In this document: positions 7,650 through 62,483 of the stretch, in pieces
Position numbering within the stretch: the first letter of the stretch is position 1
Layout of the letters: every line of letters starts with the position of its first letter
NCBI GenBank assembly: GCA_019323525.1
Contig: JAHWHD010000066.1
Span: 1-62,483 of the forward strand
Direction: 5' to 3'
Source of the DNA: Candidatus Woesearchaeota archaeon
Lineage (GTDB): Archaea; Nanobdellota; Nanobdellia; Woesearchaeales; JAHWHD01
DNA length: 62,483 bases
Translations under genes and position numbers: made by a program
Notes under the pieces: generated by a model
Seen by the model: only the letters and a program-made list of their open reading frames with translations
Told to the model about the DNA's origin: nothing
The model's database searches: none

Positions 7650-7698
7650 GTATAGAATTAATAATCAAGGATATATATAATTTTTGATTTTAAAAAGA

Positions 7699-7706
7699 TT
7701 TATATA
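7699..7706 (+). promoter_or_regulatory. TATA box candidate for acdA
   Basis: TTTATATA lies about 40 nt upstream of the ATG at 7743. An AGAGGTGA Shine-Dalgarno-like element sits at 7731-7738. Confidence 0.35.
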
Positions 7707-7742
7707 CCAAAAATCCCCAAACATAAGTAAAAGAGGTGAAAG

Positions 7743-9092
7743 ATGTTAGATAATTTCTTCAACGCAAAACACATTGCGATAGTTGGCGCATCAAAAGAAC
7801 CTAGCAAGATAGGCCACGTTATTTTCAGGAACTTCATAGATACAGATTATGATGGAAAAATATTTCCTGTTAATCCCAACGCAGAACTGATCCTAAACCG
7901 CAAATCTTACAAATCAGTTCTAGACATAAAAGAAAAACTTCACCTTGCAATAATTGCAGTACCTGCAAAGTTCATTCTAAAGGTAGTTGAACAATGCGGT
8001 AAAAAAAAAATAAAAGATTTGATGATAATCACTGCAGGCTTTGAAGAGGTAGGAAACTTAAAACTGAAACAGCAACTAGAAAAGCTCTTAAAAAAATACA
8101 AGATACGCGTCATTGGACCAAATTGTCTTGGAACATTTAACTCCTACAACAACTTTGATTCTATGTTCTTACCAAGGTCGCGCCTAAAAAGACCAGAACC
8201 AGGGACTATATCATTTGTAAGCCAGTCAGGAGCTCTAGGCTCTGCAATCCTTGACCTGGCCGCAAAAGAAGGTTATGGAATCTCAAAGTTCATCAGCTAT
8301 GGCAATGCAATCAACACTAACGAATCTGACATACTGGAATACCTAAGTGACGACCCAAAGACAAAAGTCATCTGCCTTTATATCGAAGGCGTCAAAGACG
8401 GAAAACGATTCTTGGAAGTCTGTAAAAAGATAAAAAAACCTATCATCGCAATCAAGGGCGGCGTCACAGAAGCAGGTTCAAAAGCAACACTTTCTCATAC
8501 AGGAAGTTTAGCAGGCTCAGCTGAAATCTATAGAGGAGTCTTCAAACAAGCAGGGATTATAGAAGCTGAATCATTAGAAGACCTGTTCAATTATGCAAGG
8601 GTCTTAGAAAAAACAATTAAACCAAAAGGAAGGAGAGTACAGATTATAACAAACGGCGGCGGTTATGGGATAGTTAGTGCTGATGCTTTAGCACGGTACA
8701 ATCTTGAAGCCGCAAAACTATCTGCTACAACAATAAAAGAATTAAAAATACATCTACCGCCAATAGCAATCATAAAAAATCCGATGGACTTGATAGGAGA
8801 CGCCGACACTGAACGTTACAAGCTTGCAATCGATGCTTGCATGAACGATAACAATATAGACATCATCTACATCGTACTTCTATACCAGACACCGCTTATC
8901 ACTCCAGACATAATAGACATTGTCTCAGAATACAACGACTTAAAGAAAAAACCGATAATAACAGTCTCAACAGGCTCAGAGTTCACAGAAGTACTAAGAA
9001 AAGGCCTTGAAGAGAACAACGTACCTTGCTTTGAGTTTCCTGATAATGCAATGAAAGCTATAGGTAAATTGGTTGAGTATTATGATGTATAA
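7743..9092 (+). CDS. acdA: acetyl-CoA synthetase (ADP-forming), alpha subunit (CoA-binding/ligase-CoA domains)
   Basis: The protein starts MLDNFFNAKHIAIVGASKEPSKIGHVIFRN. It also contains GPNCLG, VSQSGALG and a SHTGSLAG phosphohistidine loop. Length is 449 aa. Confidence 0.85.
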   Translation: MLDNFFNAKHIAIVGASKEPSKIGHVIFRNFIDTDYDGKIFPVNPNAELILNRKSYKSVLDIKEKLHLAIIAVPAKFILKVVEQCGKKKIKDLMIITAGFEEVGNLKLKQQLEKLLKKYKIRVIGPNCLGTFNSYNNFDSMFLPRSRLKRPEPGTISFVSQSGALGSAILDLAAKEGYGISKFISYGNAINTNESDILEYLSDDPKTKVICLYIEGVKDGKRFLEVCKKIKKPIIAIKGGVTEAGSKATLSHTGSLAGSAEIYRGVFKQAGIIEAESLEDLFNYARVLEKTIKPKGRRVQIITNGGGYGIVSADALARYNLEAAKLSATTIKELKIHLPPIAIIKNPMDLIGDADTERYKLAIDACMNDNNIDIIYIVLLYQTPLITPDIIDIVSEYNDLKKKPIITVSTGSEFTEVLRKGLEENNVPCFEFPDNAMKAIGKLVEYYDV

Positions 9093-9111
9093 CTTCTGAA
9101 ACTACCGCCAA

Positions 9112-9224
9112 TGCTGAAATCTGTGTCTGTACATGCGAGCGAACAACAATGATATTCGTAAGACAGAAGGTGGCTCAATTAAAAGCTGCTGATGTTTAAG
9201 TCTATGAGCGAACAGATTTCAGCA
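9112..9224. ncRNA. candidate structured element E1 (13-bp closing stem, about 87-nt interior), family unknown
   Basis: TGCTGAAATCTGT (9112-9124) is the exact reverse complement of ACAGATTTCAGCA (9212-9224). The interior shares ordered blocks with a second element at 33989-34098. It lies in the convergent gap between acdA and porB, 20 nt after the acdA stop. Confidence 0.35.
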
Positions 9225-9246
9225 AGATTGCAAGCAAGAGGCTTTC

Positions 9247-10176
9247 TTAGTACTCGTCACTCTCCCAAAACTTTCCAGAATTAATCATATCCCATTCCTT
9301 GTTAACAACCTTTTGTATCTCTTTGACATGCTCAGGCTTAAGATGTTTAAAGCGACCCTGCATTGACAAAGCATTCTGAACAGGATCCATCTTAGGTTTA
9401 TGTGTAAGTGAAAACTTCTTATGCAATATTTCATACAAAGGCCAGATTCCTGTCTCAACCATTGCTTTACCTACCTCTATAGTATCGCTTTCCTTGATTA
9501 ACCATCCTGGAATGCAAGGACACAATAGGTCAATGAACGAAGGTCCTTCAACACTAGCTGCTTTCTTCAGCTTATCCATAAAATCTTTAGGAAAAGCAAC
9601 GCAAGCTGTTGCAACATAATCACAATGGCTCATTGCAAGCATCTTTGACATGTTTTTGCGAGGCAGGGCATTACCCCATGGACAACACTTGCCGGGCTCT
9701 GAAGTTTTCGTACGCGCTCCTTTAGGAGTTGCAGCTGTTCTCTGAAAACCAGTATTCGCAAAAGAGCTGTTATTATAGCATACATAGATAATCTTCTCCT
9801 TTCTGTACGCCATGCCTGACAAAGCCTGGAACCCGATATCATAAGTTGCTCCGTCCCCAGCAAAACAAAGTACATTAACATTTTTATCAAGCTTCTGCGA
9901 TTTCAATCCCATCAAGATACCAGAAGCAGTACTTGCACAATTCTCGATTGCAGAATGAACCCATGGAACATTGTAAGGTGTAAAGGGCCATGTAGCTGTC
10001 AATGTCATGCATCCTGCAGGGTTGACCATTATAGTATTCTTGCCAAGAGCTTTCAAAGCCAGCTTTGTACCAAGTATAGGTCCGCAACCAGAACATGCAA
10101 AGGTTCCACCCGTCAAGAACTTTTGTTCAGGCACATCAAAGACTTGACCCTTGATATTAACATTCACATCAGCCAT
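9247..10176 (-). CDS. porB: pyruvate:ferredoxin oxidoreductase, beta subunit (TPP-binding)
   Basis: The N-terminal region contains CSGCG. A GDG...NN TPP motif (FAGDGATYDIGFQALSGMAYRKEKIIYVCYNNSSFANTG) is present. Length is 309 aa. Confidence 0.85.
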   Translation of the reverse strand: MADVNVNIKGQVFDVPEQKFLTGGTFACSGCGPILGTKLALKALGKNTIMVNPAGCMTLTATWPFTPYNVPWVHSAIENCASTASGILMGLKSQKLDKNVNVLCFAGDGATYDIGFQALSGMAYRKEKIIYVCYNNSSFANTGFQRTAATPKGARTKTSEPGKCCPWGNALPRKNMSKMLAMSHCDYVATACVAFPKDFMDKLKKAASVEGPSFIDLLCPCIPGWLIKESDTIEVGKAMVETGIWPLYEILHKKFSLTHKPKMDPVQNALSMQGRFKHLKPEHVKEIQKVVNKEWDMINSGKFWESDEY

Positions 10177-11300
10177 CTTCTCTGCTCTCCTTTTGTCATC
10201 ATAATTTCTTTGAATATCTGTATAAAACCTTCATCTGAAACTAGAGCACCGCCAAGCCCAACTATATAATTAGATACTATTGCTTTTGAATCGTATAAAG
10301 CCATCTTAATCTCAGGATAAAGAATTCCTGACATCCCTGGACATATGCTTTGGTCAATCACAGCTATCTTCTTTATTCCGTCAAGTGCATCCTTTATCTG
10401 TTTCTCAGGAAACGGTCTGTAAACCCTTATCCTTAATAGACCAACTTTCTTACCCTGTTTCCTCATCTTATCAACAGCGCTTCTTGCAATAGTTGTGTTA
10501 GGCCCCATTATGACTAAACATGCTTCTGCATCCTTTAACCTATAAGATTCTAGTATATCGTACCCTCTTCCAGTTAATTTCTTCCACTCCGCCTGAGCCT
10601 TTTGTATAATTGGAAAAGCATCAAGCTGCGCTCTATGCAGCTGCGCCCTGTACTTCATATACTCTGCCATGACAGGAATTCCTAGTGTTCGCGGCTTTTT
10701 CACATCAAGCTTTATCTCAAGATTAAACTTAGGCAAAAACTTATCTACTAACTTCTGGTCAGGCACCTCAACTATCTCTCTGGTATAAGAATGTATAAAT
10801 CCGTCCATGTTAACTATTACAGGAAGATTTAGTATGGGGTTTTCTCCGACTTTATAACCCATGATAACTGAATCAAGCACCTCCTGGTTAGTTTCGCAAA
10901 AGATTATTATCCAGCCAGAATCGCGCATTGCAAGTATATCATTATGGTCGGGCCACAAAGTAATCGGAGCAGAAAGACCTCTGGATACATTGACCATCAC
11001 CATGGGCGTCCTTGTACCAGAAGCAATAGGCAGCATCTCGTGCATCAATAACAGACCTTGCGATGAAGTGGCTGTGAACGTCCTTGCACCTGTCATTGCA
11101 GAACCAATTGCAGCAGACATCACAGAATGCTCGCTTTCTACTTGGTTAAACTGCCCTGAAAACTCACCATTAACCTTCCATTTCTGTATTGTCTCTATAA
11201 TCTCTGTCTGTGGAGTTATAGGAAAACAAGGAACAGACTGCACTCTAGCTAACCTTGCTGCAATCGCGGCTGCCTTATTACCATCTATTAGATCCTTCAT
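10164..11300 (-). CDS. porA: pyruvate:ferredoxin oxidoreductase, alpha subunit
   Basis: MKDLIDGNKAAAIAARLARVQSVPCFPITPQTEIIE is a typical PorA start. I place the start at ATG 11300, which overlaps the porD stop (ATGA) and follows GGAGAAGGAG. The track start at 11324 is an upstream extension. Confidence 0.85.
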   Translation of the reverse strand: MKDLIDGNKAAAIAARLARVQSVPCFPITPQTEIIETIQKWKVNGEFSGQFNQVESEHSVMSAAIGSAMTGARTFTATSSQGLLLMHEMLPIASGTRTPMVMVNVSRGLSAPITLWPDHNDILAMRDSGWIIIFCETNQEVLDSVIMGYKVGENPILNLPVIVNMDGFIHSYTREIVEVPDQKLVDKFLPKFNLEIKLDVKKPRTLGIPVMAEYMKYRAQLHRAQLDAFPIIQKAQAEWKKLTGRGYDILESYRLKDAEACLVIMGPNTTIARSAVDKMRKQGKKVGLLRIRVYRPFPEKQIKDALDGIKKIAVIDQSICPGMSGILYPEIKMALYDSKAIVSNYIVGLGGALVSDEGFIQIFKEIMMTKGEQRRWLM

Positions 11301-11578
11301 TTCTCCTTCTCCATTGAAATACATTTAACAGGGCACTCTTTAGCACAGATTCCGCACCCCTTACAGGTATTAGAATCTGGATGGGTGAATCCCTTTTTAT
11401 CAATTGTATAAGCGCAGTCAGGACAGTAAAGCCAGCACTGGTGACATTTGATACACCGTTTATAATCTATAACAGGCTTGAAAACTCTCCAGCTGCTTCT
11501 CTCAGGGGCACCCATCCCTACTGTTGCATAAGGTACACCTTTTGTTCCAAGATTTTTTATCTCTTTCTCTGACTTCAT
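11297..11578 (-). CDS. porD: pyruvate:ferredoxin oxidoreductase, delta subunit (2x[4Fe-4S])
   Basis: The 93-aa protein carries two ferredoxin motifs, CIKCHQCWLYCP and CKGCGICAKECP. Confidence 0.85.
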   Translation of the reverse strand: MKSEKEIKNLGTKGVPYATVGMGAPERSSWRVFKPVIDYKRCIKCHQCWLYCPDCAYTIDKKGFTHPDSNTCKGCGICAKECPVKCISMEKEK

Positions 11579-41953: not shown

Positions 41954-43531
41954 CTAAGACTTTTTATAGATTTCTATAGTCGGAGATACAGGATATCCTT
42001 CAAAAGTTCTGCTAAGTGAGGTATAGAAGTCCTGGTTAAAGAAGTTAGACCTAAAAGTCTTTATAAGTGTATAGCCCATATCGCCTTTTCTAAAATCTTG
42101 ATACTCTTTTGTATAAATCTTCCAATCATCATGCTCTGAAGTAAAAATAATAAATTCTGGCTCATTCTCATTTAGCCAATCGGTATCTAACTTAATCCAA
42201 GGGATTATCTCATAAAACTCAGAAGATATCTTTGGAGAATAAAATTCAGGGTCGTTCCCAATTCTAGCTCCCTCGGGAATATTCTTATAGATCCAATCAG
42301 CTGCGACATCCCTAGTATCATTTGTATAACGGGCAGTTGTGCTTATTGCAAAGATTAGAGTATAAACAATAACAATTGCCAACAAGATATTCCATAACTT
42401 ACTCTTCTTCTCAGCAAAAAACCTCGCGCCCAAAATTAAAAATACAGGAATGATTGGTAACATCAACCTGATATAAGGTTTTGCCCATCCTCCAACATAA
42501 AGAAAATATGCTAAAAAAAATGCTAATAACAAAATGTCATACTTTGACCTTTTCTTGAAAGCGTAAAAAAAACCAGGGAGAACAGCCAGATAAAGCAGTA
42601 TGCCCATGCTGAAAGGAAACGTCGCCAATATCTTAAAAATATAAGGTGAATTAAACGGAACATTACCAGACACTGCTGTATAACCAGAAGTATACTGCGT
42701 CATGTAAGCATAGAACTGTGCAAAATTTGCAAAAAAACTAAGATTTGTAATGAAATAAATCACCAACACGACCCCAATCGCAATAAAGATATTCATGTCA
42801 AAGACCGACTTTAAAAAGAACTTAAGCCTTTTCTCATGCCCCTTGCTTTTATAGAAATGGTGAAGCACATGTGCAAGTATCAAAACAAGTAAAGCAATCC
42901 AGCCAGTATGCTTCATCCCCATAGCGAATACAGCGCTTAAACCAGCAAGTATGTACCACTTAAAGTTAGCATTATCAATAATGTATAATGAAAAGAGTAA
43001 AGTAAGAGCAATACCTGCAAGAACAGGGATATCATTGTACATGTAATGACTGTGCCAAATATGTATCGGTGTGATTGCTAAAAGAAAAGCTGCAATATAA
43101 CCTGCTTTCTTGCTATGCACTTTTTTTCCGATAAAAAAAACCGCGACAACAGTAATGAGACTCATCATAATCCCAAACATTCTACCTGCAGCATACATGC
43201 TTTGAAGCGATGCAGCTCCGGTTGGCACATTTGACCCGAACAAACCTCTTAGGATTGAAGCGTATAACTGCGGATGATCAAAAAAATTCCCGAACTTTAT
43301 TCCCTCAAAGACAATCCTGACAAAACCTACCTCATCTGGATGGTAAACCAAACCATGCCCCCATTGCATTGCACCCCAGAACCGAAATGCAAAAGCAATT
43401 ATAAGAATTGCAAAGAGAATCAACCACATTTGGTGCTTAAGAACAAAATCAATAGCTCCATACTGCAAATTATTATCAGAATTTTCGATGTTCTCTTTAT
43501 TATCAGCATTTATTGGATTAGATTCCATCAA
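41954..43531 (-). CDS. GT-C fold membrane glycosyltransferase (ArnT/PMT, GT39/GT83-like)
   Basis: The 525-aa polytopic protein has an early-loop YHPDE motif (GLVYHPDEVGF), as in ArnT/PMT-type enzymes. A soluble C-terminal domain is present. Confidence 0.65.
   Translation of the reverse strand: MMESNPINADNKENIENSDNNLQYGAIDFVLKHQMWLILFAILIIAFAFRFWGAMQWGHGLVYHPDEVGFVRIVFEGIKFGNFFDHPQLYASILRGLFGSNVPTGAASLQSMYAAGRMFGIMMSLITVVAVFFIGKKVHSKKAGYIAAFLLAITPIHIWHSHYMYNDIPVLAGIALTLLFSLYIIDNANFKWYILAGLSAVFAMGMKHTGWIALLVLILAHVLHHFYKSKGHEKRLKFFLKSVFDMNIFIAIGVVLVIYFITNLSFFANFAQFYAYMTQYTSGYTAVSGNVPFNSPYIFKILATFPFSMGILLYLAVLPGFFYAFKKRSKYDILLLAFFLAYFLYVGGWAKPYIRLMLPIIPVFLILGARFFAEKKSKLWNILLAIVIVYTLIFAISTTARYTNDTRDVAADWIYKNIPEGARIGNDPEFYSPKISSEFYEIIPWIKLDTDWLNENEPEFIIFTSEHDDWKIYTKEYQDFRKGDMGYTLIKTFRSNFFNQDFYTSLSRTFEGYPVSPTIEIYKKS
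41960..41981. repeat. 22-nt exact direct repeat, copy 2
   Basis: It encodes the C-terminus (PTIEIYKKS) of the 525-aa GT-C gene. Confidence 0.85.
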
Positions 43532-45414
43532 ATAGCACTCAATTTTTCATCATTTATAAAAATATCGTGCCAAAGCTCAAATGTAAGCAAGCACCATAAC
43601 TGTCTACTATAGTACAACCGAGATTTTTTGAAATCTTTCAAGACCTTCTCAATATAGTTATAGTTGAAAATCCCTTTTCTCTTGATAATGTCTTGGTCCA
43701 GCTTCTGCAGTATAAAATCGTTCAACTCACGACTAAACCAATTGTCTATAGGCACAAAAAACCTCTGTTTCTTGTTCTTCAAAGTTGAACCAGGAAGCTT
43801 TCCTTTCATCGCTGTCTTAAGAATAAACTTTTCATTTGTCCCATTAATTTTATAACTTGATGGAACCCTCGCCATCAATTCAGTAATCCTATGGTCTAAG
43901 AAAGGAACTCTAGCCTCAATCGCATGCGCCATTGTATTTTTATCAGTCTTCATCAATATATCTTCAGAAAGCATATACTCAGTATCTCTTGCAATTATTG
44001 AATACAGATAATCATCAACATTACTAAAATAACGGCTGAAAATAGCAGAATAATTTAAAGGCCCGGTGTAATTATTAATAACCTCTGACTTTTCTTTCTC
44101 ATCAAATATTGAGACCATATTAAGATAAGACTCCCCAACATCATTTGTGCCAACAACATTGGATAATCGCTCAATACCTTTCTCGCCTAAAGCATCCGCG
44201 TACTTAAAAAACCTAGAAAATACAGACGGAGGAACCTTTTGCACAAGCTTTGCAAGGTTCTTTCTAAACACGAGCGGCACTTTCTGCAAATATCTTTTAT
44301 ATAGCATCATAATCTTGAACTGCTCATAACCGCCAAACTGCTCATCACCGCCATCTCCAGTCAAAACAACTGTAGCGTGCTTCTTTGTACCATTTGACAA
44401 CGCATATACTGGAATAGCCGTCGGATCTGCCATGGGTTCATCAAGGTGCCATACTATCCTTGGCAACAACTTGATTGCATCAACCTTTACGATTATCTCA
44501 TTATGGTCAGTTGAAAAATATTCAGCAATAAATCTCGCTTTATCAAGCTCATTGAACTGTGGAGCATTATCAAAACCAATAGAGAAAGTGTTTACCTCTC
44601 CACCAAACTTTCTCATCATAGAAACAATACTTGCAGAGTCAATTCCCCCAGAAAGATAAGCCCCTAACGGAACATCAGACATCAATCTTTTTTTAACAGA
44701 ATCAGTTATCAAAGAATCTAAAAGTTTAGCAAAATGAGTTACAGAACCAGTCGACTTCTCAAATTTTGGAAACTGCCAATACTTTTTCTGGAATAATCGT
44801 CCATTGTAAGTCATCTGGTGACCTGGCAAAAGCTTATAAATATTCTTAAACATCGTCTCTCTTTCGCTATTGCACCTGAAGGTAAGAAAACTATAAACTG
44901 CGTCAAGATTAATCTCTTTCTTAACGTCAGCCTCTAGAATCGCCTTTATCTCGCTTGCAAAGATAAACCTTTCACCGTCCCAGTAATAATAGAAAGGTTT
45001 TATTCCGTGCCTGTCCCTTGCCATGAACAAGTGGTTTTTCCGGTTATCCCATATCGCGAAGGCAAATGCCCCATTGAATAGCTCAACACAATTATCCCCA
45101 TACTCTTCGTATGCATGTATAATAACTTCAGTATCTGTGTTTGACTTGAACTTATGCTTATTCTCCAGATTTTGCCTAATCTTCTTATAATTGTATATCT
45201 CGCCATTAAACACTATCCAAATACTTCCTTCTTCGTTTGACATCGGCTGCCTTCCTGCTGTAGAAAGATCAATTATAGAAAGCCGCCTATGACCTAAACT
45301 CATACCTTTTGTAACTATGTGGCCTTTATCATCAGGACCTCTATGCTCAAGTTTAGAGTTCATTCTCTGGATTAGATTCTTATCATCCCAATTAAAACCA
45401 CAGATCCCGCACAT
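43528..45414 (-). CDS. asnB: asparagine synthase (glutamine-hydrolysing) family amidotransferase
   Basis: MCGICGF supplies the N-terminal Cys nucleophile. The SGGIDS PP-loop (YLSGGIDSASIV) is present. Length is 628 aa. Confidence 0.85.
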   Translation of the reverse strand: MCGICGFNWDDKNLIQRMNSKLEHRGPDDKGHIVTKGMSLGHRRLSIIDLSTAGRQPMSNEEGSIWIVFNGEIYNYKKIRQNLENKHKFKSNTDTEVIIHAYEEYGDNCVELFNGAFAFAIWDNRKNHLFMARDRHGIKPFYYYWDGERFIFASEIKAILEADVKKEINLDAVYSFLTFRCNSERETMFKNIYKLLPGHQMTYNGRLFQKKYWQFPKFEKSTGSVTHFAKLLDSLITDSVKKRLMSDVPLGAYLSGGIDSASIVSMMRKFGGEVNTFSIGFDNAPQFNELDKARFIAEYFSTDHNEIIVKVDAIKLLPRIVWHLDEPMADPTAIPVYALSNGTKKHATVVLTGDGGDEQFGGYEQFKIMMLYKRYLQKVPLVFRKNLAKLVQKVPPSVFSRFFKYADALGEKGIERLSNVVGTNDVGESYLNMVSIFDEKEKSEVINNYTGPLNYSAIFSRYFSNVDDYLYSIIARDTEYMLSEDILMKTDKNTMAHAIEARVPFLDHRITELMARVPSSYKINGTNEKFILKTAMKGKLPGSTLKNKKQRFFVPIDNWFSRELNDFILQKLDQDIIKRKGIFNYNYIEKVLKDFKKSRLYYSRQLWCLLTFELWHDIFINDEKLSAI

Positions 45415-54095: not shown

Positions 54096-55082
54096 ATGGA
54101 TTTAAAAGACAAAAAGGTTCTAGTTACAGGTGCAGGTGGCTTTATAGGCTCTCATCTTGCAGAGGCTCTTGTCAAAAAGGGGTGCAAAGTAAGAGCATTT
54201 GTACATTATAACCCTAATAACCACTGGGGGTGGCTCGAAGATTCTGAATATAAAGATCAAATAGAGGTAGTGCTTGGCGATGTTCGAGACAGCGACTCTG
54301 TCTTGAACGCAATGAAAGATATTGACGTAGTGTTCCATCTTGCAGCTTTGATAGGGATACCATATTCATACGAATCTCCTCTAGCGTATATCAGGACAAA
54401 CATAGAAGGAACATACAACATTCTCCAGGCTGCAAGGATGCTTAACACCTCTAAAATCCTGATTACATCAACAAGCGAAACATACGGCACAGCGCAGTAT
54501 GTTCCAATAGATGAAACGCATCCTGCAGTTGGCCAGAGCCCATACTCAGCAACTAAGATTGGAGCAGACCAGATAGCTATCAGCTACCACAAAGCCTTCA
54601 ATCTTCCTGTAACAATAGTAAGGCCGTTCAATACGTACGGACCTAGACAAAGTGCCCGCGCAATAATTCCTACTATAATTACCCAAATTCTTGACGGAAA
54701 ACGAGAGATTAAGTTAGGAAACCTAACCCCTACAAGAGACCTTAACTATGTCCTTGATACAGTCGCAGGATTCATTTCAATAGCTGAAAGCGACAATACA
54801 GTCGGCCAAGTAATCAACATTGGCGCAAATCAAGAGATAAGCATGGGAGAACTTGCTCAAACAATAATAAACCTGATAGGAAAGGATGTAAAGATTGTTC
54901 AAGACCAGCAAAGATTAAGACCTGAAAAAAGCGAAGTAGAGAGATTAAGGTGTGATAACTCAAAAATAAAAGAACTTACTGACTGGAGCCCTAAGCACGA
55001 CTTAAAACAAGGACTTTCTGAAACTATTGAATGGATCAAGAAAAACATGCACAATTACAAATCAGAACTTTATAACGTCTAA
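54096..55082 (+). CDS. legB: NAD-dependent nucleotide-sugar 4,6-dehydratase, LegB-like
   Basis: The protein starts KKVLVTGAGGFIGSHLAEALVKKGCKVRAFVHYNPNNHWGWLEDS. From memory, the YN..N.WGWL pattern is typical of LegB-type dehydratases. STSETYG and YSATK (YxxxK) are present. Confidence 0.7.
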   Translation: MDLKDKKVLVTGAGGFIGSHLAEALVKKGCKVRAFVHYNPNNHWGWLEDSEYKDQIEVVLGDVRDSDSVLNAMKDIDVVFHLAALIGIPYSYESPLAYIRTNIEGTYNILQAARMLNTSKILITSTSETYGTAQYVPIDETHPAVGQSPYSATKIGADQIAISYHKAFNLPVTIVRPFNTYGPRQSARAIIPTIITQILDGKREIKLGNLTPTRDLNYVLDTVAGFISIAESDNTVGQVINIGANQEISMGELAQTIINLIGKDVKIVQDQQRLRPEKSEVERLRCDNSKIKELTDWSPKHDLKQGLSETIEWIKKNMHNYKSELYNV

Positions 55083-55083
55083 A

Positions 55084-56208
55084 ATGATACCTCTATGCGT
55101 GCCAAACATTAAAGGAAATGAACAACATTATGTCAAAGAATGCATTGAGACAGAATGGGTTGTAGACGGTAAATACATTACTTTATTCGAGGGCAAAGTA
55201 AAGGGTTACGTGGGTTCAAAATTTGCAGTCGCATGCGCAAATGGAACTTCAGCGCTGCACATATCTTTAATTATCTCAGGAGTAAAAAACGATGATGAAG
55301 TGATTGTCCCGACAATAACATTTATTGCTCCGGTTAATGTAGTAAAGTACATAGGAGCTCATCCTATTTTTATGGACTGTGACGATTACTATAATATGGA
55401 CGTCAACAAACTAAAGCAATTTATTGAAGAAGAATGCGAATTCTCTAATGACAAACTAATCAATAAAACAACAAAAAAGCAGATTAAAGCAATAATCCCT
55501 GTTCACGTATTTGGAAACCCTGTTGATATGGATCCGCTTATGGATTTAGCACAGAAATATAATCTAACAGTCATAGAAGACGCAACTGAAAGCCTTGGCT
55601 CAAGGTACAAAGGAAAATTCACTGGTACAATAGGAAACATTGGATGCTTCAGCTTCAACGGAAATAAGATAATCACAACAGGCGGTGGAGGTATGATAGT
55701 TACAGATAACCAAGAAGTAGCAGAAAAAGCGCGTTATCTCATAAACCAGGCAAAAGACGATGGTGTCAGGTACGTCCATCACGAGATAGGCTTTAACTAC
55801 AGGCTTAGCAATGTCCACGCAGCTATTGGAGTTGGACAGATGGAGAGACTAAGTGAATATATTGAAATAAAAAGACAGAATTTCCAAAAGTACAGGGAGC
55901 TATTGAAAGATGCAGATATTAAACTGACAGAAGAACCTGAATACGCAGAATCCAATTACTGGTTCTATGCGATAAAACTTGGCAGCAGCTTTGATAAAGA
56001 ATCCTTGATAAAACTCTTTTCAGATAACAAAATTCAGGTACGGCCATTGTGGGCACCAATACATATACAAAAACCATACCAAGACTGCCAAGCATATAAG
56101 ATTGAAAAAGCACTTGAATTATGGAATAAGACAATAAACATTCCATGTTCTATAAATATAACAGATGAAGAAATAAAAGAAGTTTCTGAGGTGTTCAAGA
56201 ATGGATAA
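55084..56208 (+). CDS. legC: DegT/DnrJ/EryC1 family sugar aminotransferase, LegC-like
   Basis: The ATG at 55084 lies 1 nt after the upstream stop. MIPLCVPNIKGNEQHYVKECIETEWV is typical of LegC. FSFNGNKIITTGGGGM carries the PLP lysine. Confidence 0.75.
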   Translation: MIPLCVPNIKGNEQHYVKECIETEWVVDGKYITLFEGKVKGYVGSKFAVACANGTSALHISLIISGVKNDDEVIVPTITFIAPVNVVKYIGAHPIFMDCDDYYNMDVNKLKQFIEEECEFSNDKLINKTTKKQIKAIIPVHVFGNPVDMDPLMDLAQKYNLTVIEDATESLGSRYKGKFTGTIGNIGCFSFNGNKIITTGGGGMIVTDNQEVAEKARYLINQAKDDGVRYVHHEIGFNYRLSNVHAAIGVGQMERLSEYIEIKRQNFQKYRELLKDADIKLTEEPEYAESNYWFYAIKLGSSFDKESLIKLFSDNKIQVRPLWAPIHIQKPYQDCQAYKIEKALELWNKTINIPCSINITDEEIKEVSEVFKNG

Positions 56209-56827
56209 AATCATTATTGTTGGAGGAGGAGGTCATGCTAAAGTCGTCATCTCTATTCTTCAGAAGAATAACAACTACGAAATAGTTGGTTACACAGATA
56301 TGGAAGATAGAGGAAACATGCTCGGAGTCAGATACATAGGAGATGACAACATACTAGAAAAACTAAAACAAGAGGGTTGTTCAAGCGCAGCAGTAGGCAT
56401 AGGCAGTATTGGCGATATAAGCATAAGGGAAAAGGTCTGGAATAAGTTAAAAGACCTGGGCTTTAATCTTCCTGCAATTATTTCCAAAGATGCAGTTGTA
56501 AATAATGATGTTTCAATAGGCCAAGGAACTGTTGTTATGGACGGAGCAGTCATACAACCAGGGACTGTAATAGGCGAATGCTGCATAATAAACACAAGAT
56601 CATCAATAGACCACGACTGTGAGATAAAAGATTTCGTCCATGTAGCGCCAGGAGTCACACTTAGCGGAGGGGTAAAAATTGGAAAACACAGCCATCTTGG
56701 AATGGGTGCAAACGTCATACAATACTTAAATATAGGAGATAAGTGCATCATAGCAGCAGGAGCTACTGTTATCAAAGACTGCGAAGATAATAAAAGATAT
56801 AGAGGAGTTCCTGCTAAGGAATTCTAA
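56201..56827 (+). CDS. NeuD/PglD/LegH-type sugar N-acetyltransferase (hexapeptide repeat)
   Basis: The protein starts MDKIIIVGGGGHAKVVISIL and contains YEIVGYTD. The C-terminal half has left-handed beta-helix hexapeptide repeats. Confidence 0.75.
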   Translation: MDKIIIVGGGGHAKVVISILQKNNNYEIVGYTDMEDRGNMLGVRYIGDDNILEKLKQEGCSSAAVGIGSIGDISIREKVWNKLKDLGFNLPAIISKDAVVNNDVSIGQGTVVMDGAVIQPGTVIGECCIINTRSSIDHDCEIKDFVHVAPGVTLSGGVKIGKHSHLGMGANVIQYLNIGDKCIIAAGATVIKDCEDNKRYRGVPAKEF

Positions 56828-58173
56828 AAGAGATCCTTGTAAATCTCTTTTATCCTTTTATCTCTCATCTCAAATACAGCATTAAAAACTGTCTGGTATC
56901 TTTTATAGAAATCTACGTCTTTAATCCAAGGAATAAACATAGGATTTATCTCTCCATACTGATTAGTATCAGCCCAACCCTCCAAAGCATCTGGCTCTTT
57001 TAAACCATGGTCCTTTTTCATAGACTCATACATCTCTGATCCTGGATAAGGAACATATATCCCGATTACAAATCTGTGGTTTGGATGTATTTTGTGCAGC
57101 TTCTTTGCAAAATTAACATTTGCTACCAGATCATCTTCAGTTTCAAAAGGAAAACCGCACATAAAACCTGAAGCATACTCGATGTCGTACTTCTTGAGGA
57201 GTTTAACAGTTTCTTCAATCTGTTCGAGCGTCAGTTGCTTTTTAAGTATATCAAGTATCCTCTGCGAGCCAGACTCTATGCCAAAACTCACCTCTTTACA
57301 GATTCCAGACATCTTTGATAGAATATCATCGTTAAGAAGATTGGCCCTTGTCATGCACCATTTAAGCCTAATGCCGCGTTCTTTAAGACCTTGAATAATC
57401 TTCTCAGCCCTGTCCTTTACCATTAAAAAATTATCATCACCTATCTGGATCTCTTTAATCCCGAATTCCTTGATAAGATAATCAATTTCACTAAGAACGT
57501 GTTCTGCACTTCTTGCACGCCACCTTCTTTTATGATAAAGCTTATTGTAGCAAAAAGTACATTCATACGGACAACCTTTTGAAGTAAACAACCGAATTAA
57601 GTATCTCTGAAAATTCTCTCTAACTAGATGCCAAGCAGGTATTGGATAATCATCAAGATTTACGAACTCTTTTATCGGCTCTGTAATAACAGGCTCACCA
57701 TTCTCCTTAAACGCAATACCCTCAACATCCCTCAAACTATCGCCATTCTTAAGAGCCTCTATTAACTTTACAACTGTTACCTCAGCTTCATTAATGACCA
57801 CTATGTCAACATAAGGATTCTTCAATGTCTGTAATGGCAAAATAGAAGGATGTACACCTCCCCAAACAATAGGAATACCTGCATCAGTATCTCTCACAAT
57901 TTTACAGATATTTAGTGCAAACCTTATCTGCGGACCTGTCATAGAATTTATACCAACAAAAATAGGTTTTTTAGAAACCTCATCCCTGATAATTGACTCA
58001 AAGTCATGTTCAATCCTTGTATCGATGATTTTTACAGAATAACCCTGTTTCTCAAGTATAGCTCCCAGTGTTAAGAAAGCATAAGGGGGCTCTTTCATTG
58101 AAGATTCTATCTCTCGTCTACCTTTTTTGCTCCTGTCAACAGTATCAGGTGTGATAAAAAGTACATCAGCCAT
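56824..58173 (-). CDS. B12-binding-domain radical SAM enzyme
   Basis: An N-terminal Rossmann-like B12-binding region is present (VLFITP..., GGVHPS). The radical SAM cluster motif is CPYECTFC (CxxxCxxC). Length is 449 aa. Confidence 0.75.
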   Translation of the reverse strand: MADVLFITPDTVDRSKKGRREIESSMKEPPYAFLTLGAILEKQGYSVKIIDTRIEHDFESIIRDEVSKKPIFVGINSMTGPQIRFALNICKIVRDTDAGIPIVWGGVHPSILPLQTLKNPYVDIVVINEAEVTVVKLIEALKNGDSLRDVEGIAFKENGEPVITEPIKEFVNLDDYPIPAWHLVRENFQRYLIRLFTSKGCPYECTFCYNKLYHKRRWRARSAEHVLSEIDYLIKEFGIKEIQIGDDNFLMVKDRAEKIIQGLKERGIRLKWCMTRANLLNDDILSKMSGICKEVSFGIESGSQRILDILKKQLTLEQIEETVKLLKKYDIEYASGFMCGFPFETEDDLVANVNFAKKLHKIHPNHRFVIGIYVPYPGSEMYESMKKDHGLKEPDALEGWADTNQYGEINPMFIPWIKDVDFYKRYQTVFNAVFEMRDKRIKEIYKDLF

Positions 58174-58289
58174 ATTTAAATAGTCGACAACCTAAGATAT
58201 TTAAAGGTTTCTAACCGCTATTGCAGAGGATTTTTAAATCATAAGATATATAAAGCGACATACTTGTCGAGGTATTGGAGGGATATACA

Positions 58290-59324
58290 ATGGTAAAAAA
58301 TGTCCGAGTAGGAAAGTTCATTCTTGGTAAAGGTCAAAGAACATTTATAATAGCAGAAATAGGAGGAAACTTTACAACACTTGAAAATGGCAAGAAACTA
58401 GTCAATCTCGCAGTAGAATCTGGGGCAGACGCTGTAAAGCTACAGACTTATACCGCCAAAAACACAGCAACAAAAGAGGCATTTATAAACCTAGAAAACA
58501 CTGGCGAGATAAACCAATACGAATACTTCCAAAACTTTGAGTTGTCACCCGAAATTCACAAAGAGATATTTGATTATTGTAAAGAAAAAGGCATCCTTTG
58601 TTTTTCTACACCAAGCCACCCTGAAGATGTTGAACTTCTTGAAAGCTTAGGAGTCGAGGTCTATAAAGTAGGATCAGATGATGCGATAAACCTTCCTCTG
58701 CTTACTTACATAGCTAAAAAGAACAAACCTATCCTTATGTCTACAGGAATGTGCACCCTTGAAGAAGTAAGAGAAGCCGTCAATACAATATTGAAATATA
58801 ACGACAAACTCGTATTGCTTCATGCAATATCTAATTACCCTAGCTACGCTGAAGACGCGAATCTAAAAGTGATTGAGACTTTCTATAACGAATTCGACCT
58901 GCCAATTGGATTTTCAGACCATAGTCTTGGCATTGAACTTCCGATTGCAGCGGTTGCACTAGGAGCTTGCGTTGTTGAAAAACATTTCACATACGACAAG
59001 AACGCAGAAGGTCCTGATCACATGCTATCTGCAACTCCTGAAGAGATGAAAGATATTATCAAGAGCATAAGATTAATCGAAGACGCATTAGGAGACGGGG
59101 AGAAAAAACCTACAGAGAAAGAACTTAAAAGCATGAAATATATGAGAAAAAGCATTGTAGCAACAAAAGACATCCCTACAGGAACCACAATAACAGAAGA
59201 GATGATTGACATAAAAAGACCTTGCCTTGGAATTCTGCCAAAAGAGTTCGAAAATGTAGTTGGCAAGATAGCAAAAACAGACATAAAAGAGGACGATATA
59301 ATCCAGTGGGACAGGCTATCATGA
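58290..59324 (+). CDS. neuB: nonulosonic acid synthase (NeuB/LegI/PseI family) with C-terminal SAF domain
   Basis: The ATG at 58290 follows GGAGGG. FIIAEIGGNF, DAVKLQTY, YKVGSDD and FSDHSLG are present. Confidence 0.85.
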   Translation: MVKNVRVGKFILGKGQRTFIIAEIGGNFTTLENGKKLVNLAVESGADAVKLQTYTAKNTATKEAFINLENTGEINQYEYFQNFELSPEIHKEIFDYCKEKGILCFSTPSHPEDVELLESLGVEVYKVGSDDAINLPLLTYIAKKNKPILMSTGMCTLEEVREAVNTILKYNDKLVLLHAISNYPSYAEDANLKVIETFYNEFDLPIGFSDHSLGIELPIAAVALGACVVEKHFTYDKNAEGPDHMLSATPEEMKDIIKSIRLIEDALGDGEKKPTEKELKSMKYMRKSIVATKDIPTGTTITEEMIDIKRPCLGILPKEFENVVGKIAKTDIKEDDIIQWDRLS

Positions 59325-60337
59325 AAACACTTATTATCAGGGCTGACGGATCAAATCAGATAGGCATGGGCCACATAGCAAGGATGAGCATTCTATACAA
59401 GACGCTTTCTGGATCATACAATGTAATTTTCATCAGTGTAAAAGATGATAAGGTTAAAGAACTTCTCTTAAAATATAATATTAAGCCGATTTGGGTTGAC
59501 AACGACGTACAAGGGCAAATAAGGATTACTAAAGAGACCATAACAGAAAATGACGCAATTTTACTGTTCAATGACAGTCTAGAAATAAAAAGAGAATACC
59601 TTGAACACCTTAAAGATAAGATAAAAATCATCAACTACGACGACCCTGCTGCGGGTTTTGGACTAATAGACTGCGCAATCACACCAACCGCATTTCTATG
59701 GAGCGACCGACAATATGAGATAGAAACGTATCAAGGTTTTGGTTATTTTATTATGTCTGACAAAATTAAGAAGTATAGAAGAGCAAACATTAGCAAAGAT
59801 AAAAAAAAGATTGTTATCTCAATGGGAGGCGCAGACACATACGGACTAAGTATAAAGCTACTGAACATATTCAAAGACCTTCCGGAGTATGACACGACAG
59901 TTATCCTTGGCCCAGGTTTTGAACATTTCAAAGAGATTGAATCAATAACCATACCAGACCACATAACAATCGTCCATAACGTAGAGAATCTATACGACTA
60001 CCTAAATAAAGCAGACATCTGTTTTTGCGCAGGTGGAATTACATTATTCGAACTAATGTACATCGGCACACCCACAGTATCAATTGCAGCTGAGAAGCAT
60101 GAAACATATAATTGCGAATACTTTAGGTCAAAAGGAGCTGTTAAATATCTTGGATTTAGGAATGATATAGATTATTGTGGAATTCCCGAGATCCTAAAAA
60201 ACTGGAACTATGAAGAAAGAAAAAGCATGTCAGATACAGGCAAGTCAATAATCGACGGCAATGGCCTGGATAGAGTTAAAAAAATAATCGAAAAGGTAAT
60301 TCAAGATGAAAGTATTAGTAATATCTGCGCATCCTGA
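59321..60337 (+). CDS. PseG/SpsG-like nucleotide-sugar hydrolase (GT28-like fold)
   Basis: The ATG at 59321 overlaps the neuB stop (ATGA). MKTLIIRADGSNQIGMGHIARMSIL is the characteristic PseG-family N-terminus. Confidence 0.65.
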   Translation: MKTLIIRADGSNQIGMGHIARMSILYKTLSGSYNVIFISVKDDKVKELLLKYNIKPIWVDNDVQGQIRITKETITENDAILLFNDSLEIKREYLEHLKDKIKIINYDDPAAGFGLIDCAITPTAFLWSDRQYEIETYQGFGYFIMSDKIKKYRRANISKDKKKIVISMGGADTYGLSIKLLNIFKDLPEYDTTVILGPGFEHFKEIESITIPDHITIVHNVENLYDYLNKADICFCAGGITLFELMYIGTPTVSIAAEKHETYNCEYFRSKGAVKYLGFRNDIDYCGIPEILKNWNYEERKSMSDTGKSIIDGNGLDRVKKIIEKVIQDESISNICAS

Positions 60338-60965
60338 TGACGAGACACTGGGGGCTGCAGGCACAATCCTTAAGCATATAGAGAATGGTGACCAAGTATA
60401 TTGGTGTACATTTACATATGCATTTCGCGATGCACCTCAAGAATACCTAGATCATAGACTTAAAATCATCAATCAAGTGTCAAAAACTTATGGATTCTCA
60501 GAGACATTTAACCTAAAATTCCCGACAGTAGAGCTTGATACAGTTTCTCTAAAACAGATGGTAGACAAATTATCTGCAGTGATAAACAGCATAAGGCCTG
60601 AGATTATCTATACGCCGACTGATGCTGATGTCAACACAGACCACGAGATCGTACATAAAGTTGTAATGGTATGCTGCAAACCGTTTGCTGCACCATTCGT
60701 TAAACAAATACTTGGTTATGAGGTAATTTCATCAACAAACACTTCCTTCCCAGAAAAACAAAAAAGATATATTCCGAATCTTTTCGTAGACATATCAGAT
60801 TATATAGACAAAAAGATAGAAATAATGAAACTATTTGATGAGGAATTCAAGCAATTTCCTCATCCGCGCTCTGTTGAAGGTATTAGAGCGCTTGCTGCTT
60901 ACAGGGGAACATCATCAAATCTTATAGCGGCCGAGGCATTTATGTTACTAAGAATGATAAAATGA
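60306..60965 (+). CDS. PIG-L/LmbE family N-deacetylase
   Basis: MKVLVISAHPDDETLGAAGT carries the AHPDDE motif. A downstream HxxH-type metal ligand region (NTDHEIVH) is present. Confidence 0.8.
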   Translation: MKVLVISAHPDDETLGAAGTILKHIENGDQVYWCTFTYAFRDAPQEYLDHRLKIINQVSKTYGFSETFNLKFPTVELDTVSLKQMVDKLSAVINSIRPEIIYTPTDADVNTDHEIVHKVVMVCCKPFAAPFVKQILGYEVISSTNTSFPEKQKRYIPNLFVDISDYIDKKIEIMKLFDEEFKQFPHPRSVEGIRALAAYRGTSSNLIAAEAFMLLRMIK

Positions 60966-61663
60966 AAACCATATCAATACACCAACCAAGCTACTGGCCA
61001 TGGTTAGGCCTATGCCACAAAGTTGCAAATAGCGATGTTTTTGTAATCCTTGATACTGTGGACCTTAACAAAGAAGCTTATCAACATAGAAACCAATTTC
61101 TGTGCAATGGAAAAAAACAGATGCTAACAATACCTATCACCTACAGCCTTGGAACTCCAATAAAAGACATCAAGATTGCAGACCGTAAATGGGGAGAATC
61201 ACATTACAATAAGCTGCTTAACTGGTATAGAAACTCTAGATTCTTTGGATATTACCACGAAAGAATAAAAGAACTCTACAGCAGACCGTTCACTAACATG
61301 ATAGAGCCAGTTATAGAGACCATGAAGTTCATTTTCAATGAATTAGGGATCAATACTGAAATAATACATGCATCTTGCATAAATCCTGAAGGAAAAAAAG
61401 CAGAACTTGTCTTGGACATTTGCAAAAAGCTTAAAGCAGACTTATATTTATCAGGCAGAGGTGCACTTAATTATATGGGCGATGATGCAAAATCAGAGTT
61501 TGAAAAAGCCAATATTAAAATAGAACTTCAGAACTTCACACATCCAACATACGAACAGTTCAACAGCCAAGAATTTATTCCAGGATTAGCGGCTTTAGAC
61601 TTGTTGTTCAACCATGGCCCTAACGAAGCAAAGAATATATTCAGACAAACTTTAGAAAAATGA
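60962..61663 (+). CDS. WbqC family protein
   Basis: ISIHQPSYWPWLGLCHKVANSDVFVILDTV matches the WbqC N-terminal pattern (QPxYxPWxG). Length is 233 aa. Confidence 0.7.
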   Translation: MKTISIHQPSYWPWLGLCHKVANSDVFVILDTVDLNKEAYQHRNQFLCNGKKQMLTIPITYSLGTPIKDIKIADRKWGESHYNKLLNWYRNSRFFGYYHERIKELYSRPFTNMIEPVIETMKFIFNELGINTEIIHASCINPEGKKAELVLDICKKLKADLYLSGRGALNYMGDDAKSEFEKANIKIELQNFTHPTYEQFNSQEFIPGLAALDLLFNHGPNEAKNIFRQTLEK

Positions 61664-62373
61664 TAAACAACAAAAAAGTCCTAGCATACATCCCTGCAAG
61701 ATCAGGCTCTAAAGGAATTCCTGATAAAAATATAGTAGAGGTCAATGGCTTACCCTTGATGGCTTACACGATAAATGCTACAAAGGCCAGCAAATACGTT
61801 GACAGGATAATTGTATCAACAGACTCTCAACAATATGCAGACATCGCTATCAAATACGGTGCAGATGTTCCGTTTCTTAGACCTGAACACTTAGCAACAG
61901 ACTTAGCTGATGAAAGCGATGTTGTTGAACATTTGATCAACTGGCTAGAAGAAAACAAAGAACCATACGACATCATAATAAAACTCCAACCAACATCTCC
62001 TTTAAGGACAGCAGAGGATATAGACAACGCCATACGGATGTTATTAGAAAAAGATGCTAACTGCATAATCAGCGTTAATGAAGCCACAGTTAACCCACTA
62101 TGGATGAATACTTTGCCTGACAATCATTCAATGGACAATTTTATTAATTTCGACCTAATTAGGAAACAAAGGCAAGAACTAAAGAAATATTACCAGCTCA
62201 ATGGCGCCGTGTTCTGCGCTAAATGGGAATTTATAAAAGAAAACAAGAATTGGTATGGTCCAAACACATTTGCCTACATCATGCCAATTGAAAGGTCTAT
62301 CGACATTGACGAACCGACAGATATAAAACTTTTGAAGACCATAATTAGTGAAAAAGATGAAAACCGAGATTGA
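61660..62373 (+). CDS. neuA: CMP-nonulosonic acid synthetase (acylneuraminate cytidylyltransferase, NeuA/LegF-like)
   Basis: YIPARSGSKGIPDKNI, QPTSPLR and NGAVF are present. Length is 237 aa. Confidence 0.85.
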   Translation: MINNKKVLAYIPARSGSKGIPDKNIVEVNGLPLMAYTINATKASKYVDRIIVSTDSQQYADIAIKYGADVPFLRPEHLATDLADESDVVEHLINWLEENKEPYDIIIKLQPTSPLRTAEDIDNAIRMLLEKDANCIISVNEATVNPLWMNTLPDNHSMDNFINFDLIRKQRQELKKYYQLNGAVFCAKWEFIKENKNWYGPNTFAYIMPIERSIDIDEPTDIKLLKTIISEKDENRD

Positions 62374-62483
62374 AAAACTAGTATTGATTGGAACTGCGTC
62401 AGTAAAACAAAGCATTAAACTTATGGACGATGCAGGCGAAGGACTCCTAATAATACTAGACGAATCACACCGCATCAAAGGCC
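62357..62483 (+). CDS. partial CDS (N-terminus), possibly CBS-domain/nucleotidyltransferase protein
   Basis: The ATG at 62357 gives MKTEIEKLVLIGTASVKQSIKLMDDAGEGLLIILDESHRIKG..., which resembles the start of a CBS-pair. The frame is open to the window edge and overlaps the neuA end by 17 nt. Confidence 0.4.
   Translation, partial: MKTEIEKLVLIGTASVKQSIKLMDDAGEGLLIILDESHRIKG

Follow-up and report, generated by a model that had tools for sequence, protein, structure and literature searches.

How might a nonulosonic acid (NulO) of the legionaminic (Leg) type be made by a gene cluster without a detectable NeuC, and what would a deacetylase and a WbqC-family protein contribute to it? These questions are raised by the 3′ end of contig JAHWHD010000066.1 (assembly GCA_019323525.1) from a Candidatus Woesearchaeota archaeon. 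The window analyzed here was this whole contig of 62,483 nucleotides, which belongs to a 1.14-Mb metagenome-assembled genome (MAG) of 108 contigs that is 89% complete. From position 54096 onward the window holds otherwise close-packed genes, and the cluster is cut at the contig 3′ end. With a probability of roughly 0.6, we consider that the locus comprises two operons making a cytidine monophosphate (CMP)-activated 5,7-diamino-3,5,7,9-tetradeoxy-nonulosonic acid of the legionaminic type, one N-acyl group of which is edited. The cluster is a mosaic: its front end and activation step are canonical for Leg, its synthase and hydrolase form a pair of another lineage, and a tailoring module is added to these.

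Cluster genes were assigned to families with Pfam and NCBIfam profile scans using curated cut-offs. The list of ten genes given in an initial annotation, which had been made from the sequence by inspection, was upheld in every family assignment and in its order. The first three genes lie on the + strand. A LegB-type NAD-dependent 4,6-dehydratase of 328 amino acids (aa), acting on N-acetylglucosamine (GlcNAc) probably linked to guanosine diphosphate (GDP), is encoded at 54096-55082 and scored 508.4 bits against TIGR04180 (cut-off 475). It is followed by a LegC-type pyridoxal phosphate-dependent aminotransferase (55084-56208, 374 aa; TIGR04181 482.8 bits, cut-off 420) and by a NeuD/PglD-family (LegH-like) 4-N-acetyltransferase comprising PglD_N and hexapeptide domains (56201-56827, 208 aa; TIGR03570 223.3 bits, cut-off 160.8). 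The dehydratase failed the PseB model of the pseudaminic (Pse) pathway (TIGR03589, 75.4 bits, cut-off 407.75), and the aminotransferase failed the PseC model (264.1 bits, cut-off 423.5). That the pair might be ordinary PseB and PseC by profile had been named in the initial annotation as the check on its claim that the first two enzymes are Leg-like. The outcome of this check was negative and the Leg reading stands. No PseH-type GNAT was found among the cluster genes scanned.

At the other end of the cluster, a CMP-nonulosonic acid synthetase (LegF/PseF-like, cytidylyltransferase family PF02348, 237 aa) is encoded at 61660-62373 on the + strand. Its best NCBIfam match was PseF, at 162.2 bits and under the 205.7 cut-off. 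The last gene (62357-62483, + strand) is cut by the contig end after 42 codons and had been annotated as a partial CBS-like gene. This was confirmed on two near-identical contigs, L003 and L004, where the complete gene encodes a 352-aa PtmE-like protein with cystathionine β-synthase (CBS) and nucleoside triphosphate (NTP)-transferase domains. L003 is a 57-kb contig from another sample, with 5 mismatches to the window in 10,824 shared bases (99.95% identical).

Leg clusters of the NeuC type from Campylobacterota and Pseudomonadota were used as yardsticks. Four came from Campylobacterales genomes, two of which are close relatives of C. jejuni with a PseG nearly identical to the protein of structure 3HBM. 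Identities to the yardstick clusters were 57% for LegB (against a Campylobacterales NeuC-type cluster), 43% for LegC, 40% for NeuD, 44% for the cytidylyltransferase (against NeuA of a Campylobacter Leg cluster) and 35% for the PtmE-like protein (over 98% of its length, against the gene in the PtmE position of Campylobacterota Leg clusters). Because all five proteins match these clusters, a GDP-linked front end and activation step of the Campylobacter type are indicated. The presence of PtmE-like and LegB genes would imply a GDP-linked substrate.

NeuC/LegG was sought with PF02350 and TIGR03568, neither of which matched anything in the window or elsewhere in the full genome assembly (89% complete), in agreement with the earlier statement that a NeuC-like LegG is missing. 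The gene that follows the synthase gene (59321-60337, + strand, 338 aa) encodes a GT-B protein predicted to be an SpsG/PseG-like nucleoside diphosphate (NDP)-sugar hydrolase. It scored 105.5 bits against TIGR03590, under the cut-off of 153.55. In a sequence search of the PDB, its sole significant match was C. jejuni PseG (3HBM, E 1.6e-6, nearly full length), and the catalytic His17 of PseG aligns with its His18. An AlphaFold2 (AF2) model of the protein (predicted local distance difference test score, pLDDT, 91) has a GT-B fold and, in Foldseek searches, resembled MurG, PseG and UDP-GlcNAc 2-epimerases about equally, with PseG giving the best root-mean-square deviation (3.3 Å) and identity among the structural matches. 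Homologues of the protein are only 21-29% identical to it. They carry a C-terminal extension of approximately 60 residues with a conserved DGNG motif, which canonical PseG does not have, and they adjoin NeuB and cytidylyltransferase genes in all three contexts that were opened.

SpsG orthologues were defined by sps-operon gene order in two Bacillales genomes. The GT-B protein scored 90 bits to these orthologues as opposed to 26-50 bits to canonical PseG, and in a maximum-likelihood tree it grouped with SpsG (support 89/88) and outside the canonical PseG clade (96/91). The hydrolase had been described as PseG-type. It is indeed a PseG-family GT-B protein coupled to NeuB, but it is nearer to SpsG than to canonical PseG. 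The gene mixture had also been called unusual, but it is not without precedent: the Sps Leg pathway of B. subtilis has a PseG-like SpsG and no NeuC (PMC7439481). The product of the sps operon co-elutes with a legionaminic acid standard and spsG is required; SpsG was proposed by the authors to hydrolyze and epimerize, without an enzyme assay (PMC7439481). Canonical PseG is a pure hydrolase, as cited there from Rangarajan et al. 2009.

The NeuB-family nonulosonic acid synthase (58290-59324, + strand, 344 aa) contains PF03102 (292 bits) and an SAF domain (PF08666) and is the single NeuB in the genome. It fell under both equivalog cut-offs, scoring 357 bits against NeuB (TIGR03569, cut-off 399.65) and 295.1 bits against PseI (cut-off 340.25). 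Its best match among solved structures was PseI 8H2C (208 bits). A tree was made from four solved-structure references, the Campylobacterales Leg-cluster synthases and all NeuB proteins of the WbqC loci described below. Synthases accompanied by NeuC formed one clade with 100/100 support. The window synthase was placed in a separate 99/96 clade with enzymes of Bathyarchaeota, Methanosarcinales, Omnitrophota and Nitrospinae, apart from the NeuC-associated synthases, PseI 8H2C, SpsE 1VLI and NmNeuB. Every member of this clade comes from a WbqC/PIG-L locus; NeuC is absent from all of these loci, and a PseG-like gene is present in each one whose contig extends far enough. LegB or LegC was found in none of the other loci of the clade, which carry generic short-chain dehydrogenases/reductases, aminotransferases and SPASM radical SAM enzymes instead. 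For this reason the window version is the easiest of them to interpret.

The hydrolase gene is followed on the + strand by a PIG-L/LmbE-family de-N-acetylase gene (60306-60965, 219 aa; PF02585 77.9 bits, cut-off 28.2) and a WbqC-family gene (60962-61663, 233 aa; PF08889 196.5 bits, cut-off 21.3, covering profile positions 1-217 of 218). The PIG-L protein has the AHPDDE metal/catalytic motif at residues 8-13, and its relatives in the PDB are LmbE-like deacetylases and BshB. WbqC matched no NCBIfam model and no PDB sequence. Its AF2 model was of high confidence (pLDDT 96); a Foldseek search of this model against the PDB gave nothing below E 0.01, the best value being 0.011. Sub-threshold likeness to class I aminoacyl-tRNA synthetase and pantothenate synthetase folds was seen at E values of at least 0.05 and query-normalized template modeling (TM) scores of at most 0.40. 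A ligase function for WbqC is put forward here as a hypothesis. A literature search found no biochemical study of WbqC (PF08889) and no paper combining nonulosonic acids with PIG-L.

At least 511 relatives of WbqC were detected with an alignment of 12 WbqC sequences as query, and the genomic context was counted in 80 of their loci, all from GTDB species genomes. NeuC was detected in these loci with four bona fide NeuC sequences. PIG-L was encoded no more than 300 bp from wbqC in 33 of the 80 loci, no more than 2 kb away in 45 and anywhere in the locus in 56. The remaining 24 had no PIG-L in the fetched DNA, and several of these end close to wbqC. Among the immediate neighbors of wbqC (n = 138), PIG-L was the commonest (24), followed by GT1/GT4 glycosyltransferases (18) and DegT aminotransferases (11). 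NeuB was present in 16 of the 80 loci; 15 of these also had PIG-L, 8 a PseG-like gene, 5 NeuC and none both a PseG-like gene and NeuC. The eight loci with NeuB and a PseG-like gene but no NeuC, examined with flanks of at most 10 kb per side, came from six phyla. The PIG-L/WbqC pair thus occurs in Pse-, NeuC- and SpsG-type clusters of many phyla, and the two genes, which had been listed as extras, are instead a conserved and portable pair. A deacetylase followed by an enzyme that re-derivatizes the amine is a recurring design, in which WbqC is the commonest partner.

In a Helicobacteraceae and a Sulfurimonas MAG, a single open reading frame (ORF) of 608-614 aa joins an N-terminal NeuC of ~385 aa to a C-terminal PIG-L of ~215 aa. 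The fusion was located at L132:14482-16305 (- strand; the same gene as L069 ~6133-7960) and in L048 from position 2664, in Leg-type clusters that also have WbqC. PIG-L would therefore act near the stage of the NDP-sugar or the free hexose. To our knowledge, the 2-N-acetyl group of a GlcNAc residue is what every characterized PIG-L enzyme (MshB, BshB, GlcNAc-PI deacetylase and chitobiose deacetylase) removes. Because of this, and because the cluster keeps its own 4-N-acetyltransferase, the acetyl group removed is probably the GlcNAc-derived one (the future N5). The adjacency of PIG-L and WbqC suggests that they catalyze consecutive steps. Both genes are real, and replacement of an N-acetyl group by the two proteins, as first suggested, stays the best reading of the pair.

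Two further loci were noted. A Campylobacter-like genome (G270, L127:7862-13803) has a canonical Pse locus, with PseF, PseG and PseH over their cut-offs, that also includes WbqC and PIG-L. The gene order is PseF, two genes of no known family, WbqC directly upstream of pseG, PseG, PseH, a formyltransferase-like gene and PIG-L; a second PseH is present, and a WbuX/PseA-type amidotransferase is encoded nearby on the other strand. In a Campylobacterales genome (G082, L136:7640-11529), the NeuB and NeuC genes of a Leg cluster that also has PIG-L are separated by genes for an ATP-grasp ligase and a HAD hydrolase. No WbqC was found in this cluster, and the set looks like an alternative form of deacetylate-then-ligate tailoring.

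An amidino group had been offered as one possible replacement substituent. PtmG (Cj1324) converts CMP-Leg5Ac7Ac to the 5-acetamidino form, and WbqC was considered as a candidate PtmG. This candidate was refuted. After the ptmG-position gene of a Campylobacter Leg cluster come genes for a methyltransferase, NeuB, NeuC and PtmE, then a 295-aa gene and NeuA. The ptmG-position gene encodes a WbuX-type amidotransferase (TIGR03573, 375 bits), and comparison with the WbqC alignment gave an hhalign probability of 0.3%. In genomes with both LegB and WbqC genes, checked for the identity of PtmG, the two were on different contigs or 30-91 kb apart. The ptmG-position genes at L135:11142-12281 and L133:13195-14340 (both - strand) match no Pfam family and score 375-384 bits against TIGR03573; by these profile matches, PtmG appears to share a family with PseA and WbuX. 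A TIGR03573 gene was absent from the cluster genes scanned, the whole genome not having been searched for one. Known amidino chemistry therefore lends this option no support.

The following scheme is proposed, in which we infer the order of substrates, the nucleotide, the N-acetyl group removed, the group installed by WbqC and the stereochemistry of the product. The PtmE-like enzyme would form GDP-GlcNAc from GlcNAc-1-P and GTP. Dehydration at C4 and C6 by LegB, 4-transamination by LegC and 4-N-acetylation by the NeuD/LegH enzyme would then give GDP-2,4-diacetamido-2,4,6-trideoxy-D-glucose. In the role of NeuC/LegG, the SpsG-like GT-B enzyme would remove the nucleotide, with or without epimerization at C2. 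The free hexose would be condensed with phosphoenolpyruvate (PEP) by the NeuB homologue, and the cytidylyltransferase would convert the product to the CMP-sugar. PIG-L would take off one N-acetyl group, most probably the GlcNAc-derived one (hexose N2, which becomes N5 of the NulO), and WbqC would put another acyl-type group on the freed amine. The divergently transcribed B12-radical SAM enzyme probably methylates.

Three other explanations were weighed against this scheme. The first two accept the cluster as a NulO pathway and differ in its product. If the SpsG-like enzyme hydrolyzes the gluco-configured GDP-sugar without epimerization, NeuB would give the C5 epimer of Leg or a related isomer, and the NulO would be neither Leg nor Pse. 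The pure hydrolase activity of canonical PseG (in the work of Rangarajan et al. 2009, as cited in PMC7439481) fits such a route, as does the position of the synthase in its own 99/96 clade, apart from the NeuC-associated enzymes, 8H2C, 1VLI and NmNeuB, with every member in a locus without NeuC. Against the route stand B. subtilis, where SpsG and SpsE, in the absence of NeuC, yield a product co-eluting with the Leg standard (PMC7439481), and the grouping of the window hydrolase with SpsG. Its GT-B fold is also common to the UDP-GlcNAc 2-epimerases (TM 0.62-0.65), so that epimerase chemistry is structurally possible. A stereoisomer of this kind is judged unlikely. A further idea is that PIG-L alone leaves a free, positively charged amine and that WbqC does another job, such as epimerization, O-modification or participation in transfer. 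That PIG-L and WbqC are so often found tightly side by side speaks against it, as do the clusters in which PIG-L is coupled with a formyltransferase or an ATP-grasp ligase and the neighbors of WbqC (GT4 and PIG-L), which mirror the mycothiol/bacillithiol scheme of GT4, deacetylase and ligase. This idea draws on the free-amine CMP-NulOs of Ca. Kuenenia, whose Leg-type cluster has a deacetylase, on the lack of a recognizable acyltransferase or ligase motif or significant fold match in WbqC, and on the 24 of 80 WbqC loci with no PIG-L in the fetched DNA. We rate it as improbable.

An ordinary Leg or Pse pathway would be present if the 11% of the genome missing from the assembly held NeuC and the GT-B protein were a glycosyltransferase, or if the first two enzymes were divergent PseB and PseC. 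The genome is 89% complete and the contig truncated, and MurG-type glycosyltransferases gave the best Foldseek E-values for the GT-B model (TM 0.70-0.73). These points are outweighed by the PseB and PseC scores far under their cut-offs with LegB and LegC over theirs, by the recurrence of NeuB with a PseG-like gene and no NeuC in eight loci of six phyla, and by the retained catalytic His of PseG in a protein whose gene is translationally coupled to neuB. This explanation is considered very improbable. Several observations weigh against the edited Leg-type product itself. The synthase lies outside the canonical LegI clade and below the NeuB and PseI cut-offs, so the product may differ from the Leg configuration. 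The grouping of the hydrolase with SpsG involves long branches and carries moderate weight. C2 epimerization and use of a GDP-linked substrate are putative activities of an SpsG-like enzyme. WbqC has neither a characterized member nor a significant structural relative, and its suggested acylating role draws on gene context and analogy. Loci entered the context statistics because they contained WbqC, the genome is 89% complete, and the contig end falls inside the cluster. As a more speculative proposal, which we would advance only tentatively, the SpsG-like enzyme and the distinct NeuB might together make an undescribed NulO isomer (e.g. the C5 epimer of Leg), and WbqC might at the same time be a new-fold, possibly ATP-dependent, ligase-like enzyme that, with PIG-L, swaps the GlcNAc-derived N-acetyl group. 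If so, a WbqC/PIG-L editing module would be common to hundreds of bacterial and archaeal lineages.

The arrangement of the genes was as follows. On the + strand, legB, legC and neuD abut or overlap. The radical SAM gene, on the - strand, converges on neuD and diverges from neuB. From neuB through the GT-B gene, PIG-L, wbqC and the cytidylyltransferase gene to the truncated gene, neighbors overlap by 4-32 nt; the last 4 nt of neuB, at its stop, are shared with the start of the GT-B gene. Between the radical SAM gene and neuB lies a divergent intergenic region of 116 bp (58174-58289) with several A/T-rich, TATA-like boxes read from the sequence, one of which (GATATATAAAGC) is ~33 nt ahead of the neuB ATG. 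These boxes are putative promoters. Gene starts were taken from gene calls on the near-identical contigs (LegC 55084, NeuB 58290, PseG-like 59321), the longest-ORF starts being further upstream. For LegC, the ORF is open from a TTG at 55027 and the L003 gene call begins at the ATG equivalent to 55084. The base composition of the cluster was not distinct.

The radical SAM gene (56824-58173, - strand, 449 aa) encodes a B12-binding class B enzyme with PF02310 and PF04055, a probable methyltransferase, and so bears out the B12-radical SAM enzyme first reported on the opposite strand. No NCBIfam equivalog scored over its cut-off. The nearest named WbqC locus fetched, L052 (66% identical over the part present), is from another Woesearchaeota MAG and has an orthologue of the radical SAM gene (535 bits) directly upstream of PIG-L and WbqC, with the same orientation. 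Weaker homologues were found in WbqC loci L028, L029, L047 and L083.

Past the gene truncated in the window, L003 (11764-19832) encodes a GDSL-like protein. Genes on the opposite strand follow, for a carbamoyltransferase of the NodU type, an ornithine carbamoyltransferase, two further B12-radical SAM enzymes, a methyltransferase and a GT2. The ornithine carbamoyltransferase adjoining the NodU-type O-carbamoyltransferase is a possible source of carbamoyl phosphate. NodU-type carbamoyltransferases also flank the PseG-like genes of L010, L011 and L018 and are present in 14 of the 80 WbqC loci. Upstream of the cluster, among GT-C, GT2 and flippase genes, the window encodes a 628-aa asparagine synthase-like glutamine amidotransferase (43528-45414, - strand), which may amidate a uronic acid or another glycan carboxylate. 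A mirrored second copy of the cluster at 5.9-11.3 kb, considered on account of ORFs of 449 and 208 aa, was ruled out by Pfam, the match in size being coincidental. The region 5920-11324 belongs to central metabolism and encodes a PALP enzyme, both subunits of an ADP-forming acetyl-CoA synthetase, one on each strand, and subunits of pyruvate:ferredoxin oxidoreductase (PFOR).

The distribution of the pathway was sampled in 201 genomes of the same taxonomic order. The SpsG-like protein was found in 6 of them and a strong full-length NeuB in 53. The initial annotation had held sialic-acid-like sugars to be rare in archaea; with 53 of 201 genomes encoding a NulO synthase, this is not the case in this order. 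A genome of the same genus (94% complete) and one of the same family (76% complete) contained neither the SpsG-like protein nor NeuB, and the nearest relatives of the window synthase are in other phyla. The NulO class is common in these archaea and the window cluster is a patchy accessory trait. In two same-order loci (L139:730-2535 and L141:733-2490), a PseG-like domain forms the C-terminal part of 585-601-aa proteins, beyond an N-terminal stretch of 240-250 residues.

Nonulosonic acids govern surface charge, contact between cells, and phage and host recognition, and for an episymbiotic DPANN archaeon a surface glycan is likely to be central to its lifestyle. Among members of this widespread, unstudied pathway type, the cluster is the one that can be interpreted best. 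Since its front end consists of textbook LegB, LegC, LegH and PtmE, substrates for the SpsG-like, NeuB, PIG-L, WbqC and radical SAM enzymes could be made with known enzymes. Two questions thereby become testable: C2 epimerization by SpsG-type enzymes, left from the B. subtilis work, and the function of the WbqC family (PF08889).

The tailoring pair was compared with the mycothiol and bacillithiol pathways, which use a GT4 glycosyltransferase (MshA/BshA), a PIG-L-family deacetylase (MshB/BshB) and a ligase (MshC/BshC). The likeness is one of functional analogy only: the commonest immediate neighbors of WbqC are PIG-L and GT4-type genes, and such PIG-L enzymes expose the GlcNAc 2-amine for re-acylation. 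WbqC had no detectable homology to MshC or BshC. The Pse pathway of Campylobacter and Helicobacter (PseB, PseC, PseH, PseG, PseI and PseF) shares with the window the hydrolase superfamily with its catalytic His, the synthase match to 8H2C and PseF as best NCBIfam match of the cytidylyltransferase. It differs in that all five models (PseB, PseC, PseG, PseI and PseF) stay under their cut-offs on the window proteins; PseB is moreover an inverting enzyme, whereas the window dehydratase is of the RmlB-like LegB type.

Among Leg pathways, the GDP-linked CMP-Leg pathway of C. jejuni comprises PtmE, LegB, LegC, LegH, LegG, LegI and LegF (Schoenhofen et al. 2009, as cited in PMC7439481 and bioRxiv 10.64898/2026.04.20.719630). 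The window locus shares LegB and LegC over their cut-offs, a NeuD-family acetyltransferase, a CMP-synthetase and a PtmE-type CBS-NTP-transferase. In contrast, it has an SpsG/PseG-like GT-B protein and no LegG/NeuC, and its synthase lies outside the NeuC-associated clade. Tailoring of the C. jejuni type uses a WbuX-type amidotransferase and a methyltransferase (ptmG and ptmH positions), where the window has PIG-L, WbqC and the B12-radical SAM enzyme. The Sps Leg pathway of B. subtilis (SpsM, SpsC, SpsD, SpsG, SpsE as well as SpsF; Dubois et al. 2020, PMC7439481) is likewise a Leg route that needs a PseG-like SpsG and has no NeuC, and the window GT-B protein groups with SpsG. It is UDP-linked and starts with SpsM, a PglF-like (Polysacc_synt_2) UDP-GlcNAc dehydratase, in place of LegB and the PtmE-like enzyme; SpsD is a GNAT whereas the window acetyltransferase is NeuD-type, and SpsE is not sister to the window synthase in the tree. 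Genes for PIG-L, WbqC and a radical SAM enzyme, all three present in the window, are missing from the sps operon.

A built-in deacetylase is shared with the Leg-type cluster of Ca. Kuenenia stuttgartiensis, which has a deacetylase and a formyltransferase and goes with CMP-NulOs in which one amine is free and the other formylated (bioRxiv 10.64898/2026.04.20.719630). Editing of the N-acyl pattern at the nucleotide-sugar level is seen there by mass spectrometry. The Ca. Kuenenia cluster is reported with legG and a formyltransferase, whereas the window has the SpsG-like enzyme and WbqC and no formyltransferase. What the window adds is the PIG-L/WbqC/radical SAM cassette joined to a front end of bona fide LegB, LegC, LegH and PtmE type.

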